A stretch of 31,673 nt of DNA from assembly GCA_036008865.1 (NCBI GenBank), contig DASYMV010000373.1:1-31673 (forward strand), read 5' to 3'. Positions 3,208 through 9,987 of this stretch are shown here, piece after piece. The position numbers and the translations under genes are program-made. Numbering within the stretch: position 1 is the first letter of the stretch; every line of letters starts with the position of its first letter. The DNA is from Pseudonocardiaceae bacterium. GTDB taxonomy: Bacteria; Actinomycetota; Actinomycetes; Mycobacteriales; Pseudonocardiaceae. The notes under the pieces are model-generated. The model did not search any database and had not been told where the DNA came from. It worked only from the letters and a program-made list of their open reading frames with translations.

Positions 3208-3739
3208 TCATCCGGTGGCCGCCGGCGCCGAACCCTCCGTGACGAACAGGGGGCTCGCGATGTCCTCGAGCGATCGCTGGGACGCCTCGACACCGAGCAG
3301 GAGTTCCACCACGCCGCCGAGGATCATCACCACCGCACCGATGCAGTAGCCCATCGCGACCGCGCTCGGGCTACCGGTGCTGACGAGCTGACCGAACAGT
3401 GCCGGCCCGATGATGCCGCCGAGCGCGGTGCCCATCGAGTAGAGCAGAGCGATCGCCATGGCCCGGATCTCCAGTGGGAAGATCTCCGACACCGTGAGAT
3501 ACGCCGCGCTCGCCCCCGGCTCCGGCACCGGTGAGCAAGCGCATGAGGAAGAACCACCAGGGACTGAAGGAGAACGCGGTCAGCACCGCGCCGATGACGT
3601 AGCACGACGCGGTGAGACCCACCTGGGCCTCGGTGAGCCCGAGCCCGAGGATCACGGTCCAGTGCCACCTCGACCACGGCAGCCGGTCCATCCGCGCCGG
3701 AACGTCGGTCTCCACCGTGCTTCTCGGAGTGTCGGTCAT
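3208..3739 (-). pseudogene. MFS transporter pseudogene with several internal deletions and a frameshift
   Basis: MFS N-terminus (MTDTPRSTVETDVPARMDRLPWSRWHW) at 3739 and MFS C-terminus (GASAAYLTVSEIFPLEIRAMAIALLYSMGTALGGIIGPALFG) in a different frame. Only about 530 bp remain, far short of a 12-TM MFS gene. Confidence 0.8.
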
Positions 3740-3800
3740 CGCCACGCCGGCCACCGTCCTCGAGCCCCCAAGTCGATCAGTCGCGACTGTGCTTCCCGAT

Positions 3801-4748
3801 TCACCGATCGGGCGAACTCCCGTCATCCGCACGCAGACGCAGCACCGGAACACCCGGCGTGACGGCAATGGCTCCGGCCACGCGGTCGAGCACGACGAGA
3901 CCGACCTCAGCGGGCATCGCGGGCTCGTCGGAGGGGAAGAACAGGAACTCCGGTTCGGCGACGGCTTCCGACCGCATGGCCGCCACCGCGTCGGCGTCGG
4001 GCTGCCTGCCCCGCCCGAACACGGGGTCGGCCGGTGCCACCGACGCCATGACATCGACCTGTGGTCGAGTGGCGCGGGCAGGCCCGAGCCAGGCCGTCGG
4101 CCCCGGCGTGGACAGCCCTGCGAGCAGGCCGACCGCTCCCAGCCGCACCGGATCCGGTCCGGACAACTCGGCGTCACGACCGCTGACGACGCGGCACAAC
4201 GCCGCCGCCTCCACGTCGTCGGGCGGGGTGATGCCGAGCAGTGTCGCGGCCTCGGCGGGGTCCAGCCCGTCTGCGTGGCCGCGCCGCAGCGGCCAGAAGG
4301 GGAACGCCGGTGCCGGCCAGGCGTACGGCAGGTCGTCGGGAACGTCCGGCCCGAACAGCGGCCGGTAGTGGTCCGGGTCCTTGCGCAGCAACGACGACTG
4401 GTGGCTCAGATGCACCGCGGGCTCGCCCAGCCACGGCGGGAGCTGTCCCGTCGCGGCCAGCCGGCCACCGTCCGGCAGCTGCCCACCGGTGAACGCGAGC
4501 AGTTGGGGCAGGACGGTGTCGTCGTGTCCGAGCGCCGACCACCGCTGGCAGATCGCCACGCCGTACAGCACGAGCGCGGGCACGAAGCCCCGCCACATCT
4601 TGACCGCCGGGTGGTTCTTCCAGCCGTAACTGGGCCACACCAGTGCCCGCAGGATCTGGAGGGTCTCCACGCGCTGCTTGCCGAGCCTGCGCACGTCGAG
4701 CGCCGCGGCGCTGTCGGTGAAGCCCGCGAAGGGCAGGAACGTCTGCAT
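3801..4748 (-). CDS. MSMEG_6728-family / pyrimidine-dimer DNA glycosylase-like protein with a C-terminal degenerate RecQ-like domain, 315 aa
   Basis: Starts MQTFLPF, with LDVRRLGKQRVETLQI, GWKNHPAVKMWRG, LPPWLG and HLSHQSSLLRKDPDHY, all typical of the family. About 160 extra C-terminal residues. The track ORF 3801..5111 is over-extended upstream. Confidence 0.88.
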   Translation of the reverse strand: MQTFLPFAGFTDSAAALDVRRLGKQRVETLQILRALVWPSYGWKNHPAVKMWRGFVPALVLYGVAICQRWSALGHDDTVLPQLLAFTGGQLPDGGRLAATGQLPPWLGEPAVHLSHQSSLLRKDPDHYRPLFGPDVPDDLPYAWPAPAFPFWPLRRGHADGLDPAEAATLLGITPPDDVEAAALCRVVSGRDAELSGPDPVRLGAVGLLAGLSTPGPTAWLGPARATRPQVDVMASVAPADPVFGRGRQPDADAVAAMRSEAVAEPEFLFFPSDEPAMPAEVGLVVLDRVAGAIAVTPGVPVLRLRADDGSSPDR

Positions 4749-4760
4749 GTCGCGTCGCGG

Positions 4761-4786
4761 GTACCCCGTCCGCAACACATCGACAC
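4761..4786 (-). promoter_or_regulatory. Putative SigF/SigB-type promoter of the glycosylase-like gene
   Basis: Minus strand reads GTGT-N16-GGGTAC-N12-ATG, resembling the actinobacterial SigF/SigB consensus (GTTT/GNNT-N14-17-GGGTA). No SD before the ATG. Confidence 0.45.
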
Positions 4787-4886: not shown

Positions 4887-5243
4887 ATGGGTGCGGATCG
4901 GTGGCAGTACCTGGCGTTGATGGCGGCATGCCTCGCGGTCACCGCGCCGTTGGAGCCGCTCGGCGCGGGCGTCTACCGCAGGGCCGGCAGGCTGGCACGC
5001 ACACTCCTCCCGGTGGTGGCCGTGTTCGCGGTGTGGGACGTGGTGGCGATCGCCCGCGGTCACTGGAGTTACAACGCTCGGTACACCACCGGGCTGTCGT
5101 TGCCGGGGCACGTCCCGGTGGAGGAACTGGTCTTCTTCGTCGTCATCCCGCTGTGCGCGATCCTGACCTACGAGGTCGTGTCAGCGCAGACCGCCCCGCG
5201 TCCGCTGGAGCCCGTGCTGCCCGGCGGCCGGAGCGCGGCTTGA
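4887..5243 (+). CDS. crtYc: Heterodimeric lycopene cyclase subunit (CrtYc-like), 118 aa
   Basis: Hydrophobic; motifs WDVVAIARGHWSYN and PVEELVFFVVIPLCAILTYE. GGGAGG SD at 4875-4880. Lies within the crt cluster. Confidence 0.85.
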   Translation: MGADRWQYLALMAACLAVTAPLEPLGAGVYRRAGRLARTLLPVVAVFAVWDVVAIARGHWSYNARYTTGLSLPGHVPVEELVFFVVIPLCAILTYEVVSAQTAPRPLEPVLPGGRSAA

Positions 5244-5557
5244 ACGCCGAGTACCTGATCGCCGCATCCGTCGCCTCGGTGCTGGTCGTCCTGGCCGAAC
5301 TCCTGGTGCTGCGCACGGGCCTGTTCCGCCGCAAGGCCTACTGGATCACGATGGTCGTCGTCTTCGCGTTCCAGGTCCTGGTCGACGGATGGCTGACCAA
5401 GCTGAGCGCACCGGTCGTGCTCTACGCCGACTGGGCGATCAGCGGCCTGCGCATCCCCTGGGACATTCCCGCCGAGGACTTCCTGTTCGGTTTCGCGATG
5501 GTCACCGCCACGCTGCTGCTGTGGGAGCGGGCGCGCGCACGAGAGGGGACGGGGTGA
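5240..5557 (+). CDS. crtYd: Heterodimeric lycopene cyclase subunit (CrtYd-like), 105 aa
   Basis: TTG start overlapping the upstream stop (TTGA). Motifs FQVLVDGWLT and IPAEDFLFGFAMV; hydrophobic. Confidence 0.83.
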   Translation: MNAEYLIAASVASVLVVLAELLVLRTGLFRRKAYWITMVVVFAFQVLVDGWLTKLSAPVVLYADWAISGLRIPWDIPAEDFLFGFAMVTATLLLWERARAREGTG

Positions 5558-6288
5558 ACGAGGCCGGCAGGCTGGACGCGACGGACGTGCCCGGCGCGTT
5601 CGACGCTGCGGCACGCAGCTACGACGTGCTGGTGGGGGCCAATCCCGGCTACCACGCCGCCCTGCGGCGTTCTGCGCTTCGGCTCGGCCTGCGCGGAGGT
5701 GGTGCGGGCTTGCGGGTGCTCGACCTGGGCTGCGGGACGGGAGCGTCCACCGCCGCCCTTCTCGCGGTGGCGCCGCGCGCCGAGGTCGTCGCCGTGGACG
5801 CCTCGGCGGGCATGCTGGCGCGCGCGAGGAGCAAGAGCTGGCCGGAATCGGTGACCTTCGTGCATTCGCGCGCGGAGGATCTCGCCGAGGCGGGAGTCGA
5901 CGGCTCGTTCGACGCGGTGTTCGCCGCGTACCTGGTGCGCAACCTGCCGGAGCCGGACCCGCTGCTGAAAACGGTGCTCGGTCTGCTCCAGCCGGGTGCG
6001 CCGTTCGTGGCGCACGAGTACTCCGTGCGCGACTCCCGCGTGCGGTCGCTGATCTGGTCCGCTGTGTGCTGGACGGTGATCATCCCCAGTGGCACCGTCG
6101 CGACGCGCGATCCCGGTCTCTACACCTACTTGTGGCGCAGCGTGCTGAGGTTCGACGGCACCGAGGAGTTCACCAACCGGTTGCGCGCCAGCGGGTTCAC
6201 CGATGTCGCCACGTTCGACGTTCCCGGCTGGCAGCGCGGGATCGTCCACACCTTCACGGGCAGGCGCCCGGCACGGGAGATCGCATGA
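5554..6288 (+). CDS. crtT: Class I SAM-dependent methyltransferase (CrtT-like), 244 aa
   Basis: GTGA overlap with the upstream gene. SAM motif VLDLGCGTG, VDASAGML and FDAVFAAYLVRN. Position next to crtU as in Streptomyces crt clusters. Confidence 0.78.
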   Translation: MNEAGRLDATDVPGAFDAAARSYDVLVGANPGYHAALRRSALRLGLRGGGAGLRVLDLGCGTGASTAALLAVAPRAEVVAVDASAGMLARARSKSWPESVTFVHSRAEDLAEAGVDGSFDAVFAAYLVRNLPEPDPLLKTVLGLLQPGAPFVAHEYSVRDSRVRSLIWSAVCWTVIIPSGTVATRDPGLYTYLWRSVLRFDGTEEFTNRLRASGFTDVATFDVPGWQRGIVHTFTGRRPAREIA

Positions 6289-7886
6289 CGACCGATCAGC
6301 GCCCTGGCCGCGACCGCCGCGCGGTTCGCGTCCCCGCACCTGCGGGGCGCCCCCGGCTGACCGGGACGGACGGCCCCCCGCGGGTCGCCGTGGTCGGCGG
6401 CGGGATCGCCGGCCTCGCCGCGGCAACCGTGCTCGCCGAACGCGGCGCGCACGTCGTGGTCTGCGAGAGGGAGCCGTACCTCGGCGGCCGCGCGGGCGGC
6501 TGGCCGACCACGCTCGCCGACGGCAGCCAGGTCACCATGACCAGGGGCTTCCACGCCTTCTTCCGGCAGTACTACAACCTGCGCGCACTGCTGCGCCGCG
6601 CGGACCCGGCGGGCACCGCACTGGTCGGGCTGGACGACTACCCGCTCTGGCACGCCGGCGGCCACGAGGAGGGTTTCGCGGGGTTGCCGCGGTCGACCCC
6701 GTGGAACGCCATGGGCTTCCTCTTCCGCAGCCCCACGTTCGCCTGGCGGGACCTGGCCAAGGTCGACGCCCGCGCCGCGCTGCCACTGCTGAACGTGTCC
6801 GTGCCGAGGACCTACCAGGAGCTCGACGCACTGGACGCGGCGAGCTACATCAACGCGATCCGATTCCCGCCCGCCGCGCACGCGCTGGCCTTCGAGGTCT
6901 TCTCCCGCAGCTTCTTCGCGCATCCGCAGGACATGTCGGCCGCGGAACTCGCGACCATGTTCCACATCTACTTCCTCGGCTCCGCAGAGGGACTGCTGTT
7001 CGACGTGGCGGCCGACCCGTTCCCGCACGCGCTGTGGGATCCGCTGGCCCGGTACCTGACCTCGCTCGGCACCGAGGTGCGCACGGGCACGCCGGTGTCC
7101 GTGATCGGCAAGGGCGGTCCGCGCCGGTTCGAGGTGCACCTCGGCACCGGAGAGCCCCCGATTCAGGCGGACGCGGTCGTACTGGCGGCTGACGTCGGCG
7201 GCCTGCGGCGGATCGTGGAGTCCTCGGACGAGCTCGGCGGCCCGGAGTGGCGCGACCACGTCGGGCAGCTGCGCAACGCGCCGCCGTTCCTGGTCTCGCG
7301 CCTGTGGCTCGACCGGCCGGTGCGAGCGGACCGACCGGGTTTTCTGGGCACCAGCGGGTACGACCTGCTGGACAACGTGTCGGTGCTGAACCACTACGAG
7401 CACGAGGCACGGGCCTGGGCCGCCCGCAACAACGGCGCGGTGGTGGAGTTGCACGGATACGCGCTGCCGTCCGGTGTGGACGAGGCCGAGGGCCGCGAGC
7501 GGCTCATCACCCAGCTGCACGAGGTGTACCCGGAGACGACCGGCGCACGGATCGTGGACGAACGACACGAGTTGCGCCAGGACTGCCCGCTGTTCCCACC
7601 GGGTGGCCACGCGCTGCGACCGGGCGTGCGGACTCCGGAGGACTTCCTCGTGCTGGCGGGTGACCTGGTGCGCATCGACCTGCCCGTGGCGCTGATGGAG
7701 CGGGCCGCGACGACGGGCTTCACCGCGGCCAACCTGCTGCTGCAGCGCTGGGGTGTGGCGGGCACGCCGCTGTGGAGCGTGCCCACCTCCGGCCGCAACC
7801 CGTCACTGAGCGCCCTCGCCCGGCGCTTCGGCCGCAACCCCGTCCCCGCTCAACCGACCCAACGGCCCGTGCTGCGCAAGGTGTAG
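6285..7886 (+). CDS. crtU: Beta-carotene desaturase/methyltransferase (isorenieratene synthase, CrtU-like), 533 aa
   Basis: ATGA overlap. FAD-binding VAVVGGGIAGLAAA..ERE..LGGR, RGFHAFFRQYYNL and C-terminal LAGD..R.DLPVALMERAATTG. Confidence 0.85.
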   Translation: MTTDQRPGRDRRAVRVPAPAGRPRLTGTDGPPRVAVVGGGIAGLAAATVLAERGAHVVVCEREPYLGGRAGGWPTTLADGSQVTMTRGFHAFFRQYYNLRALLRRADPAGTALVGLDDYPLWHAGGHEEGFAGLPRSTPWNAMGFLFRSPTFAWRDLAKVDARAALPLLNVSVPRTYQELDALDAASYINAIRFPPAAHALAFEVFSRSFFAHPQDMSAAELATMFHIYFLGSAEGLLFDVAADPFPHALWDPLARYLTSLGTEVRTGTPVSVIGKGGPRRFEVHLGTGEPPIQADAVVLAADVGGLRRIVESSDELGGPEWRDHVGQLRNAPPFLVSRLWLDRPVRADRPGFLGTSGYDLLDNVSVLNHYEHEARAWAARNNGAVVELHGYALPSGVDEAEGRERLITQLHEVYPETTGARIVDERHELRQDCPLFPPGGHALRPGVRTPEDFLVLAGDLVRIDLPVALMERAATTGFTAANLLLQRWGVAGTPLWSVPTSGRNPSLSALARRFGRNPVPAQPTQRPVLRKV

Positions 7887-8854
7887 CGGCGCTCGGCGTA
7901 GTCGAGGTCGTCGCGCCACAACCGCTTGGCCGCCCACTCCATCACCGGGCGCAGTGCCGGCGCCACCGGACGGGCCATTGCGAACCCACGGCGGTCGGAG
8001 TGGGCGATGGTCGCCTCGATGACGGCGGTGCGCGGGACACCGTCGGGACCGGGGCCGAGCGGCGTGGCGTGCGTCTCCACCACGCTGCCCTCACCCTCGC
8101 CGTCGACGATGCTCATGACGACGGTCCTCGGCTCGGGGCAGGTGAAGGCGGCGACGACCGGCACGCCGACCCTGCCCGCGACGCGGAAGGTCACCTCCAC
8201 CAGGAAGCGGTCGGCCTCCCCGTTGAGTTCCATGTCCGCGGTCGGCGCATCGATCACCCTGAGGTTGGCGAAGGAGTACGGGTGGAACCACGCCCCGTGC
8301 CACGGGTCCAGCCGGTTCGCCACCACGTCCTCCGGCTCGCACCGGCCCTCCACGGTCGCCACCGCGTCGATCGCGCCTGCGGGTGGGCGGGCGGGGATCA
8401 CCGGTCGCCCGAGGGGCTCTTCTCCGCCGACGGCGTCGAGCCGCACCCACGCCAGCACGCCGTCGTCGTGCGCGGGATACGGGCTCCAGCTGCCGAACTT
8501 GCGAGCTCCCAGCGCGAGACCGTGCCAACGGCACACCAGCTGTCCACCGTGCACCGCCGCGTCGCACAGCGGCGCCCCGAGGTGCGGACAGGACCCCGGC
8601 CCCGCCAGCAGGGTGCCGTCGGCACCGCGCCACGCCACCACCTCGCGGCCCCCGACGGTGCGGCCGAAGGGCTTGCGCGCGGTGACCTCACGACTCGCGC
8701 CCAGCACGAACCAGTTGCCCGAGGGCCGGCTCTGGGCGCGCTTCAACGCCGCGGCGATGAGCGCCGGCTTCGCGTCCGCCCAGGTCGGTCGCTGCTCGGG
8801 CCAGGGCTGTGCGGCGAAGCGCCGCAACGGGATCGAGCGACGTGCGGGTGACAT
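7850..8854 (-). CDS. crtV: Rieske 2Fe-2S + DUF5914-like protein (CrtV-like), 334 aa
   Basis: Rieske ligands CPHLG...CRWHG; NRLDPWHGAWFHPYSF; AGGAG SD. Found in actinobacterial crt clusters. Confidence 0.75.
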   Translation of the reverse strand: MSPARRSIPLRRFAAQPWPEQRPTWADAKPALIAAALKRAQSRPSGNWFVLGASREVTARKPFGRTVGGREVVAWRGADGTLLAGPGSCPHLGAPLCDAAVHGGQLVCRWHGLALGARKFGSWSPYPAHDDGVLAWVRLDAVGGEEPLGRPVIPARPPAGAIDAVATVEGRCEPEDVVANRLDPWHGAWFHPYSFANLRVIDAPTADMELNGEADRFLVEVTFRVAGRVGVPVVAAFTCPEPRTVVMSIVDGEGEGSVVETHATPLGPGPDGVPRTAVIEATIAHSDRRGFAMARPVAPALRPVMEWAAKRLWRDDLDYAERRYTLRSTGRWVG

Positions 8855-8864
8855 CGGAGCACTC

Positions 8865-9857
8865 CTAGCGGTCGGTGGCAGCTGTTCGGCGCTGATCGCT
8901 CGACTGGCCGGGAACCGGGACCACCGACGTTGAGCGGGCGAGTGCCACCCGCGCCAGCGCGGGCAGGGCGACTGCGAGACGGCGCCGGTTGGACACCACG
9001 ACGCGGCGGGACAGCACGTCGTAGTCGGCGTCCTCGATGAGATCGAGTATGCCGCCGTAGAGGCGCAGCGCGGTGGAGACGCACGGACGCGATGACGGCG
9101 CGAGCATCGGCACTCCGACCTCGGCGCGCCGGTAGACGCTCCTGGTGCGGGCGACGAGGTGCGCCAGCGCCTTGCGGATGCGCTGGTCGGGTTTGCCGAG
9201 GGTCCGCGCCCACCCGAGCAGGTCCCGGTCCACGCCGAACGCGGCGAGTTCGTCGGCAGGCAGGTACACCCTCCCCCGATCGAGGTCCTCGCCCACGTCG
9301 CGCAGGAAGTTCGTGAGCTGGAAGGCGATCCCCAGTGCCGCAGCGGCCGGCTCAGCCTCCTCGCGGGGGACGCACGTGCCGAGCACGGGAAGCACCTGCA
9401 GCCCGATCACCGCGGCCGAACCGTGCACGTACTCCTCGAGTTCGGCGTAGGTCCGGTAGTCGGTGACCACGAGGTCCATCCTCATGGAGTGCATGAAGTC
9501 CCGGAAGTACGAGTGGTCGATGCCGTAGCGCCGCGCGGTGTCCACGACCGCGGCGACGACCGGGTGCTCGCTGTGCCCCTGCGCCAGGCCTTCGCGGAGC
9601 TCGTCGTCCAATGCGGACAGCTCTGCGGCACGCATCGCGGTCGTGCGCCCGTCGTGCACCTCGTCGACGATGTCGTCGGCCCAGCGGGCGAATCCGTAGA
9701 GCGCGTGCACGGCCGGACGCTGAGCGGGAGCCAGCAATCGCGTGGCGAGGTAGTAAGTTCTGCCGTGGACGGCGTTGAGCTCGCGGCAGCGCCCATACGC
9801 CGCCCGCATGGGCGGTTCGGCGATACCGGCGGCGTCAAGTTCCCGATCGGAGCGCAC
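8865..9857 (-). CDS. crtB: Phytoene synthase, 330 aa
   Basis: [24 protein letters not shown] and [25 protein letters not shown] start chosen after the GGGGAGGGG SD. Confidence 0.93.
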
Positions 9858-9971
9858 CCGCCCCTCCCCTCGATGCACGTCCCCGTCGGACGTCAGCACA
9901 ACGCTAGGGCGGCGGCTCGGCGTGCGCTTGACGGGGCCTTCAGCTTCGCCGAGAGGTCGGCTTGATCGCCA

Positions 9972-9987
9972 CTGCATCGTCATGCAG
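9972..9987. promoter_or_regulatory. Inverted repeat CTGCAT-N4-ATGCAG in the crtB/crtE divergent region; possible operator
   Basis: Perfect 6-bp arms, located centrally between the two divergent start codons. Confidence 0.3.

Follow-up and report, generated by a model that had tools for sequence, protein, structure and literature searches.

A putative DNA glycosylase domain fused to a remnant of a RecQ-family RecA1 domain in Actinomycetes

Introduction

What does a small protein of a putative DNA repair family gain from some 160 additional residues that domain libraries do not recognise? The question is raised by a gene on the reverse strand (positions 3801–4748) of a 31,673-nucleotide stretch of DNA from a Pseudonocardiaceae bacterium (contig DASYMV010000373.1, assembly GCA_036008865.1). 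This stretch, referred to below as the window, is the complete 31.7-kb contig of a metagenome-assembled genome (54% complete, 380 contigs, about 70% G+C). The N-terminal part of the encoded protein belongs to the MSMEG_6728 family and resembles T4 endonuclease V. The extension of about 160 residues that follows is invisible to Pfam and NCBIfam, and proteins that carry it are labelled only 'MSMEG_6728 family protein'. A first-pass annotation, made from the sequence alone, had described the gene as a UV-repair-type glycosylase fused to a catalytically dead RecQ-like helicase domain; the boundaries that it gave are exact, and its open frame of 315 amino acids (aa) plus stop was confirmed.

Here, the extension is identified as a decayed RecQ lobe. 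It appears that the protein combines a putative glycosylase domain with a remnant of a RecQ RecA1 domain that is packed on it as a non-motor accessory, and we put the probability of this combined reading at roughly 70%. The evidence for the origin of the extension is given first, followed by the loss of its ATPase motifs, the nature of the N-terminal domain, the history of the fusion, and the role that the extension may play.

The C-terminal tail derives from a RecQ RecA1 domain

Residues 157–315, called the tail below, derive from the RecA1 domain of a RecQ-family protein, of which they are a genuine remnant. Four independent lines of evidence agree on this identity, namely the fold, a profile–profile comparison, HMMER searches, and longer relatives. 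Of the searches, only an exhaustive structural one and those with sequence profiles were decisive. AlphaFold2 (AF2) predicts the fold confidently, with a predicted local distance difference test score (pLDDT) of 89 for the full-length protein (predicted template modelling score, pTM, 0.88) and of 87.5 for the tail domain. In the exhaustive search (VIA), the tail model was aligned with 48,161 PDB representatives. The five top matches all belong to the RecQ family, namely DrRecQ (Z 9.9; 117 residues aligned, root-mean-square deviation (rmsd) 3.8), RecQL4 (9.3), RECQL5 (9.0), RECQ1 (9.0), and BLM (8.9), and each of the 50 rows listed is a RecA-like domain of superfamily 1 or 2 (SF1/SF2). Foldseek searches of the PDB with the full and the domain models also return helicase-dominated lists, in which DrRecQ is the best match (E 0.035).

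The sequence profiles point to the same family. When an alignment of 27 tails was compared by hhalign with nine actinobacterial RecQ RecA1 domains, a probability of 86 and a local score of 42.7 over 124 columns were obtained. Column-shuffled alignments score 11.7±2.4 (maximum 20.9, n=150) and a reversed alignment 13.4; the resemblance is therefore far beyond chance. In the hhalign register, G172 corresponds to the G of the RecQ 'FGY', E180 to the motif 0 glutamine, and SGRD to GG/GRD. Further along, PDPVRLG falls on PTGGGKS, GLLAGLSTPGPTAWLGP on YQIPAL..G.GIVVSP, EFLF on the strand before motif II, LVVLDRVA on (L/F)AIDEAH, and PVLRL on (I/V)ALTA. Remnants of RecQ motifs 0, I, Ia, II, and III thus lie collinear in the tail.

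A HMMER search of 401 Actinomycetes genomes with the tail profile also finds loci outside the fused genes, with E-values of 5e-11 to 7e-4 per genome and reading frames of 540–1100 aa. All ten of these that were examined are RecQ-family helicases of TIGR00614 (355–385 bits; DEAD, Helicase_C, and RecQ_Zn_bind domains), matched in their RecA1 lobe. The host genome's own RecQ-like gene (G000:C233), in which PTGAGKS and DEAH are intact, is among the matches (E 2.5e-4). A single-sequence search of 1.8 billion representatives returned 12 clusters and no helicase; its full-length matches are all fused proteins and the others are short fragments. The PDB sequence and profile search with the tail gave nothing significant, the best helicase row being DbpA (E 0.63).

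A further link to RecQ comes from longer relatives. In several lineages, proteins of 486–570 aa join the same N-terminal domain to RecA1 and RecA2 lobes and to a tetracysteine zinc finger of the RecQ type, with RecA2 and the finger in decayed form. These long forms match the RecQ equivalog model PRK11057 (best E 5.4e-21, for one protein) and RecQ_Zn_bind (25.6–30.6 bits; cut-off 25), and they reach true RecQ at E 1e-13 in a phmmer search of 5.8 billion proteins. Some carry PF03013 and PF16124 together in the databases, as automatic matches only.

These data bear on the possibility that the RecQ likeness is convergent or fortuitous and that the tail is an unrelated alpha/beta domain. It could be argued for on the grounds that scans of residues 150–315 with Pfam and NCBIfam give no match even at E up to 10, that the Foldseek E-values for the tail never reach 1e-3 or below with either model, and that VIA Z scores of about 9–10 only slightly exceed the best scores of 7–8 typical of models without a clear match. 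However, the tail-profile matches fall specifically on RecQ-family helicases, the five motifs are collinear, and a continuous series leads from the short forms to the long ones, with their matches to RecQ models, to true RecQ, and to the RecQ zinc finger. The kinship of long and short forms is itself supported by alignments A1 and A3 and by a tree of the N-terminal domain (see below). A chance likeness is therefore effectively refuted.

Much of what the first-pass annotation had proposed for this region agrees with these results. Homology of the additional 160 residues to RecQ RecA1 is borne out by the structural search, the profile–profile comparison, HMMER, and the long relatives, so that the profile and structural similarity to RecQ and SF2 domains on which the proposal hinged are both present. 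The ungapped register of 52 residues to the RecQ N-terminus reappears in hhalign, as does the pairing of EFLF, LVVLD, and PVL with the strand before motif II, VDEAH, and ALTAT. A further pairing, of QVD with DQVD, was rejected: hhalign offsets the two by two positions, and the loop that contains QVD is rich in proline and not conserved, so that the match is attributed to chance. The label 'helicase domain' is right as to descent and too generous as to content, as only a trimmed RecA1 half-core is left in this protein.

Loss of the ATPase motifs

Neither GxxGK[ST] nor a DExH motif occurs in any of 116 fused proteins examined. In the protein studied here, PTGGGKS has become PDPVRLG and DEAH has become DRVA, and the destruction of Walker A and Walker B claimed at first pass thus holds both for this protein and for the whole set. 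The P-loop region varies among short relatives, reading PGGGAT in one group and being deleted in another. All long forms have PG(T/S)GGS(T/A) at the P-loop and D(R/D/G/H/S)A at motif II. None of the fused forms retains the aromatic loop (SQWGHDFRPDY) that follows motif II in RecQ. Based on these sequences, ATPase activity was probably lost long ago and in every member of the fused clade. Since the tail has lost the lysine of Walker A and the glutamate of motif II, together with the aromatic loop, RecA2, and the zinc finger, it should be unable to bind and hydrolyse ATP or to translocate as a helicase.

The protein is derived from the RecQ helicase family and is not a member of it. One of its close standards of comparison is the group of actinobacterial RecQ-like helicases of about 550–600 aa (TIGR00614), which have an ATPase–linker–zinc finger layout. 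The tail is homologous to their RecA1 domain and shares the order of their motifs. In contrast to them, it has no Walker A lysine, DEAH, aromatic loop, RecA2 (Helicase_C), or zinc domain, and it gives no match to TIGR00614 at the family cut-off. This subfamily is taken to be the donor because the profile of the long-form core scores highest on it (141–175 bits, against 68–83 bits on canonical RecQ). The two weakest helicase matches of that profile, possibly DEAD-box proteins, score 18–21 bits. The layout of the subfamily resembles that of the motor unit of Mycobacterium smegmatis RqlH (PMC3378886).

With a helicase fold, lost ATPase motifs, and a sequence under selection, the protein would fit the category of pseudohelicases. 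Described examples are Deinococcus radiodurans PriA (PMC4504706) and yeast Utp25 (PMC9539457), which likewise have lost the ATPase motifs and still keep a helicase-derived fold under selection, presumably because it binds or scaffolds. They differ in that both RecA lobes are kept and no catalytic DNA repair domain is fused to them, whereas here a trimmed RecA1 is joined to a glycosylase-like domain. The first-pass annotation knew of no described fusion of a glycosylase and a pseudohelicase, and no description of a glycosylase–pseudo-RecQ fusion was found in the searchable literature. It is advisable not to annotate such proteins as helicases or ATPases.

The N-terminal domain resembles T4 endonuclease V

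The first 146 residues pass the curated cut-offs of two families. NF038085 (MSMEG_6728_fam) is matched over all of its 149 profile positions by residues 1–146 (E 9.9e-63, 210.6 bits; cut-off 100), and PF03013 (Pyr_excise) by residues 1–76 (E 4.2e-17, 62.7 bits; cut-off 23). When the full-length AF2 model was searched exhaustively against known structures, T4 endonuclease V (1enj_A) was the sole non-helicase row (Z 7.4, which is below 8; rmsd 3.3 Å; 104 of 137 residues aligned). The alignment pairs model residues 1–129 with residues 2–127 of the chain, so that this predicted, modest match to T4 endonuclease V begins at the first residue. The view that the first 150 or so residues form a complete domain of the MSMEG_6728/T4 endonuclease V type, already taken at first pass, is in keeping with all three matches. 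Unlike the protein described here, which has 169 residues more, about two-thirds of the members that were counted in 109 genomes stand alone, at a length of about 150–175 aa.

Enzymes of the T4 endonuclease V type use the N-terminal amine together with a catalytic glutamate (Glu23). In 23 diverse N-terminal domains, Q2, T3, F4, and P6 are invariant, as is the block RLGKQRVE (residues 21–28, nucleotides 4665–4688). By analogy, the invariant N-terminus and the glutamate of this block may serve the same chemistry. The domain is referred to here as a putative DNA glycosylase/apurinic-apyrimidinic (AP) lyase domain.

Distribution and history of the fusion

NF038085 domains are present in 109 of the 401 sampled genomes, and in about 36 of these (about a third) the domain runs straight on, in the same frame, into a RecQ-like tail. 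Among the carriers of the short form are Actinokineospora iranica, a Streptomyces sp., Nocardiopsis halotolerans, Thermobifida halotolerans, and Motilibacter, and the tail is kept in many genera and in more than 100 sequence clusters. The fusion therefore recurs in many actinobacteria. A fusion confined to this genome with a neutrally evolving tail, which the first-pass annotation had named as evidence against its proposal, is not what was found (for selection, see below). Between the tail and the N-terminal domain lies a linker with the motif FPxWP(L/V)RR, which is invariant in the fused proteins and missing from the stand-alone members.

The N-terminal domain tree (77 rows, IQ-TREE, midpoint-rooted) places all 58 RecQ-fused rows on one side of a branch with support 98/90, apart from the 19 rows with a stand-alone domain or another tail. 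This is consistent with one fusion event, in which an MSMEG_6728-type domain would have been joined to a full RecQ-like core. The short forms fall into two clades, one of 11 rows that includes the protein described here and one of 23 rows that is sister to the long forms. Since RecA2 and the zinc finger of the long forms are homologous to those of RecQ, the ancestor was long and was truncated at least once. It was probably truncated two or three times.

Rows from unpublished genomes were included in these analyses, namely G055 (L024, L058), G062 (L048), G026 (L037), G049, G051, and G019, and no conclusion rests on them alone. L048 accounts for one of the three RecQ_Zn_bind matches and for one of the two strong matches to the RecQ equivalog, and the ten RecQ matches that were verified include L058.

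A form of intermediate length was also found. This 364-aa protein (L043:1417-2508(-) in G116; also P0057, with five member sequences) nests among long forms of about 560 aa and ends shortly past the RecA1 lobe, as judged against a long form of the same genus (L046:742-2439(-) in G139). It looks like an independent and more recent truncation of the pseudo-RecQ core.

Four other actinobacterial proteins (L074:1290-2279(+), L077:739-1644(-), L075:764-1696(-), and L079:469-1380(-)) join the MSMEG_6728 domain to different C-terminal extensions of about 150–180 aa. These have no Pfam match, are unlike the RecQ-like tail, and all end in a motif like ALLQDPR.(F/L)F. It therefore seems that the N-terminal domain has acquired such additions on more than one occasion.

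The tail is under purifying selection

The ratio of nonsynonymous to synonymous substitution rates (dN/dS) was estimated by the NG86 method in four pairs with dS below 0.5. It is 0.17–0.38 for the tail and 0.02–0.14 for the N-terminal domain; for the RecA2–zinc part of three long-form pairs it is 0.18–0.25. Across 27 tails with a mean identity of 40%, 15 columns are invariant. Judged from these sequences, the tail is under purifying selection and does not evolve neutrally.

Could the tail nevertheless be a functionless relic that is being lost and has been retained by chance? The progressive decay of the catalytic motifs, a Walker A region that is variable or deleted among relatives, the recurrent truncation that gives long, mid, and short forms, and a constraint weaker than that on the N-terminal domain would all be expected of such a relic. 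This explanation is nonetheless very improbable in view of the low dN/dS in unsaturated pairs, the invariant columns, the persistence of the tail in so many genera and clusters, and its confidently predicted fold.

The most conserved part of the tail is the block GLLAGL(C/S)TPGxTxW(V)xP, which comprises the post-P-loop helix and the motif Ia strand; L208–L212, T214, G216, T218, and W220 are invariant in it. Position 213 (nucleotides 4110–4112, reverse strand) is Ser in the protein described here and Cys in at least 90% of the short-form tails (GLLAGL-C-TPG), and it is varied in the long forms. In the EPEFLFF strand, P266 and F270 are invariant and E267 and F268 nearly so.

Predicted packing of the tail on the N-terminal domain

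Residues 1–150 and 157–315 were predicted as separate chains, with an alignment built for this analysis. The docked pair reaches an interaction prediction score from aligned errors (ipSAE) of 0.84, compared with 0.08 for the best of three controls. For comparison, 58 of 80 solved complexes attain this mark, as do 2 of 110 mismatched pairs; these counts are rough because of the custom alignment. The docking runs agree in at least 97% of the contacts, and the pLDDT of the partner is at least 82. In the predicted interface, the loop 224–250, the helix 251–263, and the EPEFLF strand of the tail face residues 34–41, 54–72, and 78–110 of the N-terminal domain. Residues specific to the fused clade are found there on both sides, namely W38, T87, and G88 in the N-terminal domain and W220, P266, F268, and F270 in the tail. 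A fixed arrangement of the two domains is also implied by the pTM of the two-domain model given above.

Proposed role of the tail

The reading that we favour is that the RecQ remnant is rigidly packed on the glycosylase domain through the loop 224–250, the helix 251–263, and the EPEF(L/R)F strand, which would lie against W38 and residues 54–110. It would be an integrated, non-motor accessory that stabilises or shapes the glycosylase domain, and its conserved motif Ia block may extend the surface that contacts DNA. The dead RecQ core that the ancestral long form carried was probably a module that binds DNA structures independently of ATP.

Several points weigh against this reading. For the N-terminal domain, PDB sequence and profile searches gave nothing significant, the structural match to T4 endonuclease V is modest, and no paper on the biochemistry of the MSMEG_6728 subfamily was found in the searchable literature. 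For the tail, there are the blank domain scans and the weak Foldseek E-values already described. The docking result is a model confidence between two halves of one chain. Of 30 conserved tail positions, 9 fall in the predicted interface, which makes up about 36% of the residues; this is no enrichment, and docking alone therefore fails to explain the conservation of the tail. As to history, the midpoint-rooted tree needs two losses to account for the short forms, and its well-supported branches alone are compatible with one. The acidity of the tail and the local nature of its carotenoid neighbourhood, both described below, belong to the same side of the balance.

One alternative is that the tail is an autonomous nucleic-acid-binding module, that is, an ATP-independent sensor of single-stranded DNA or junctions that uses motif Ia and the surfaces next to it to target the glycosylase to gaps, forks, or bubbles. 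In SF2 helicases, the region of the post-P-loop helix and motif Ia contacts the DNA backbone, and it is this region that forms the most conserved block of the tail. Moreover, the long relatives keep both RecA lobes and the zinc finger, that is, a full DNA-binding cleft. In the protein described here, however, RecA2, which is half of that cleft, is gone together with motif Ib and the aromatic loop, and much of the tail surface is predicted to be buried on the N-terminal domain. The tail is also acidic (net charge −11, isoelectric point 4.3, no lysine), which speaks against independent DNA binding. Charge was set aside as a test of this point, genuine RecQ RecA1 lobes being acidic as well. On balance, autonomous DNA binding by the tail is unlikely.

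It has also to be considered whether the tail is a platform for protein docking, for example a RecA1 mimic that binds a RecQ-like helicase, a single-stranded DNA-binding protein (SSB), or another repair factor and thereby recruits downstream repair. A RecA1 domain without RecA2 exposes the former inter-lobe surface, an intact RecQ-like helicase is encoded in the same genome, and in genome G066 the fused gene and a RecQ-like helicase gene are 4 kb apart. This proximity is not general: the distance is 14–15 kb in G061 and G091 and exceeds 200 kb in G108, G131, and G153. In four other genomic contexts, neither a partner nor a conserved neighbour was found. A docking platform is the more doubtful of these two alternatives.

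A related and slightly broader proposal, which may be entertained only tentatively, is that the dead RecQ module is more than a structural support and acts as an ATP-independent sensor that steers a glycosylase for UV or stress lesions either to particular DNA structures or to a repair partner. If this were true, the family would be a branch of base-excision repair in actinobacteria that is under SigF control and has so far gone unrecognised, with a former helicase turned into a targeting domain, and the RecA1-only form described here would be its minimal functional unit.

The identification of the extension as a decayed RecQ lobe has a wider interest of its own. An intact RecQ-like helicase, a full-length ATPase-dead core joined to a glycosylase-like domain, and a RecA1-only stub form a natural series, which is a clean case of a motor domain that was turned non-catalytic and then pared down. 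The results also yield concrete hypotheses that can be tested on a repair family which is regulated by stress, widespread among Actinomycetes, and as yet uncharacterised.

Features of the gene and its start codon

The features of the gene are collected in Table 1. The chain ends eight residues past the motif III strand, and RecA2 and the zinc domain are missing beyond it. In the databases, the gene call (P0002) is 325 aa long and begins at GTG 4778, ten codons upstream of ATG 4748. Its additional segment (4749–4778, reverse strand) overlaps a promoter-like element. ATG 4748 is taken as the real start because every homologue in the alignment begins with MQTFLP or VQTFLP and because the promoter-like element lies between the two candidates; the start of P0002 is probably mis-called.

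Table 1. Features of the fused gene, with positions in the window (all on the reverse strand)
Feature	Residues	Position	Strand	Remarks
Whole coding sequence		3801..4748	(-)	315 codons and TGA stop; MSMEG_6728-family domain fused to pseudo-RecQ RecA1 remnant
N-terminal domain	1-146	4311..4748	(-)	T4-endonuclease-V-like; Pyr_excise/MSMEG_6728 family
Linker	147-156 (PAFPFWPLRR)	4281..4310	(-)	motif F-P-x-W-P-(L/V)-R-R
Tail	157-315	3804..4280	(-)	trimmed RecA1 domain of RecQ-family origin, predicted ATPase-dead; five strands and four helices
Motif 0 remnant	172-180 (GITPPDDVE)	4209..4235	(-)	LLG...RP(G/E)Q in relatives; Q replaced by E180
Destroyed Walker A/motif I	198-204 (PDPVRLG)	4137..4157	(-)	PTGGGKS in RecQ; from hhalign and alignments
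Most conserved tail block	207-223 (GLLAGLSTPGPTAWLGP)	4080..4130	(-)	post-P-loop helix and motif Ia strand
Proline-rich variable loop	224-250	3999..4079	(-)	replaces RecQ motif Ib region; lower pLDDT; predicted to lie on N-terminal domain
Helix and EPEFLFF strand	251-263, 265-271	3936..3998	(-)	core of predicted interface with glycosylase domain
Destroyed motif II/Walker B	283-291 (GLVVLDRVA)	3876..3902	(-)	LLAVDEAHC in RecQ; D288 kept, Glu lost; DRVA at 288-291
Motif III remnant	301-307 (PVLRLRA)	3828..3848	(-)	PV(L/I)ALTATA in RecQ; last strand of the domain
Candidate SigF-type promoter		4762..4786	(-)	GTGT-N16-GGGTA; ends 13 nt before ATG 4748

Promoter and genomic surroundings

Of 33 fused-gene loci, 11 have the sequence GGGTA at 14–18 nucleotides upstream of the start codon (that of the protein itself and L021, L022, L028, L031, L033, L035, L036, L044, L050, and L063), and GGGCA occupies the same place in several others. 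The element looks like a conserved −10 box of the SigF type. In M. smegmatis, MSMEG_6728 belongs to the SigF regulon; its expression drops strongly when sigF is mutated, and the mutant loses its carotenoid pigmentation as well (PMC4694148). Given this dependence and the placement of GGGTA, a near-leaderless promoter of the SigF type is a reasonable assumption, and the gene is probably transcribed from such a stress promoter with no leader or a very short one. A palindrome, GGGTACCC (4759–4766), occurs once in the window; at least one chance match is found in 26 of 100 shuffles.

A carotenoid cluster (about 4887–9983) is divergent from the fused gene. It contains two open reading frames with lycopene cyclase domains and genes for a UbiE-type methyltransferase, an amine oxidase/desaturase, a Rieske+DUF5914 protein, and a phytoene synthase. 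SigF-type stress expression next to carotenoid genes would fit a role in photoprotection. The adjacency is local to this genome and is not kept in four other genomic contexts, in which the fused gene has no conserved neighbourhood.

In G066, the two genes of the neighbouring pair mentioned above lie on opposite strands (L056, G066:C1:2353500-2363500); the fusion gene is of the long form, and the RecQ-like helicase gene is intact.

Directly downstream of the fused gene in the window are remnants of a major facilitator superfamily (MFS) transporter (3208–3760, reverse strand). One piece (MDRLPWSRWHW...) corresponds to the N-terminal part of the transporter and another (MFS_1, E 7.7e-7; Sugar_tr profile positions 370–449 of 452) to its C-terminal part. 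The two are read in different frames, most of what should lie between them is gone, and together they are probably a pseudogene.

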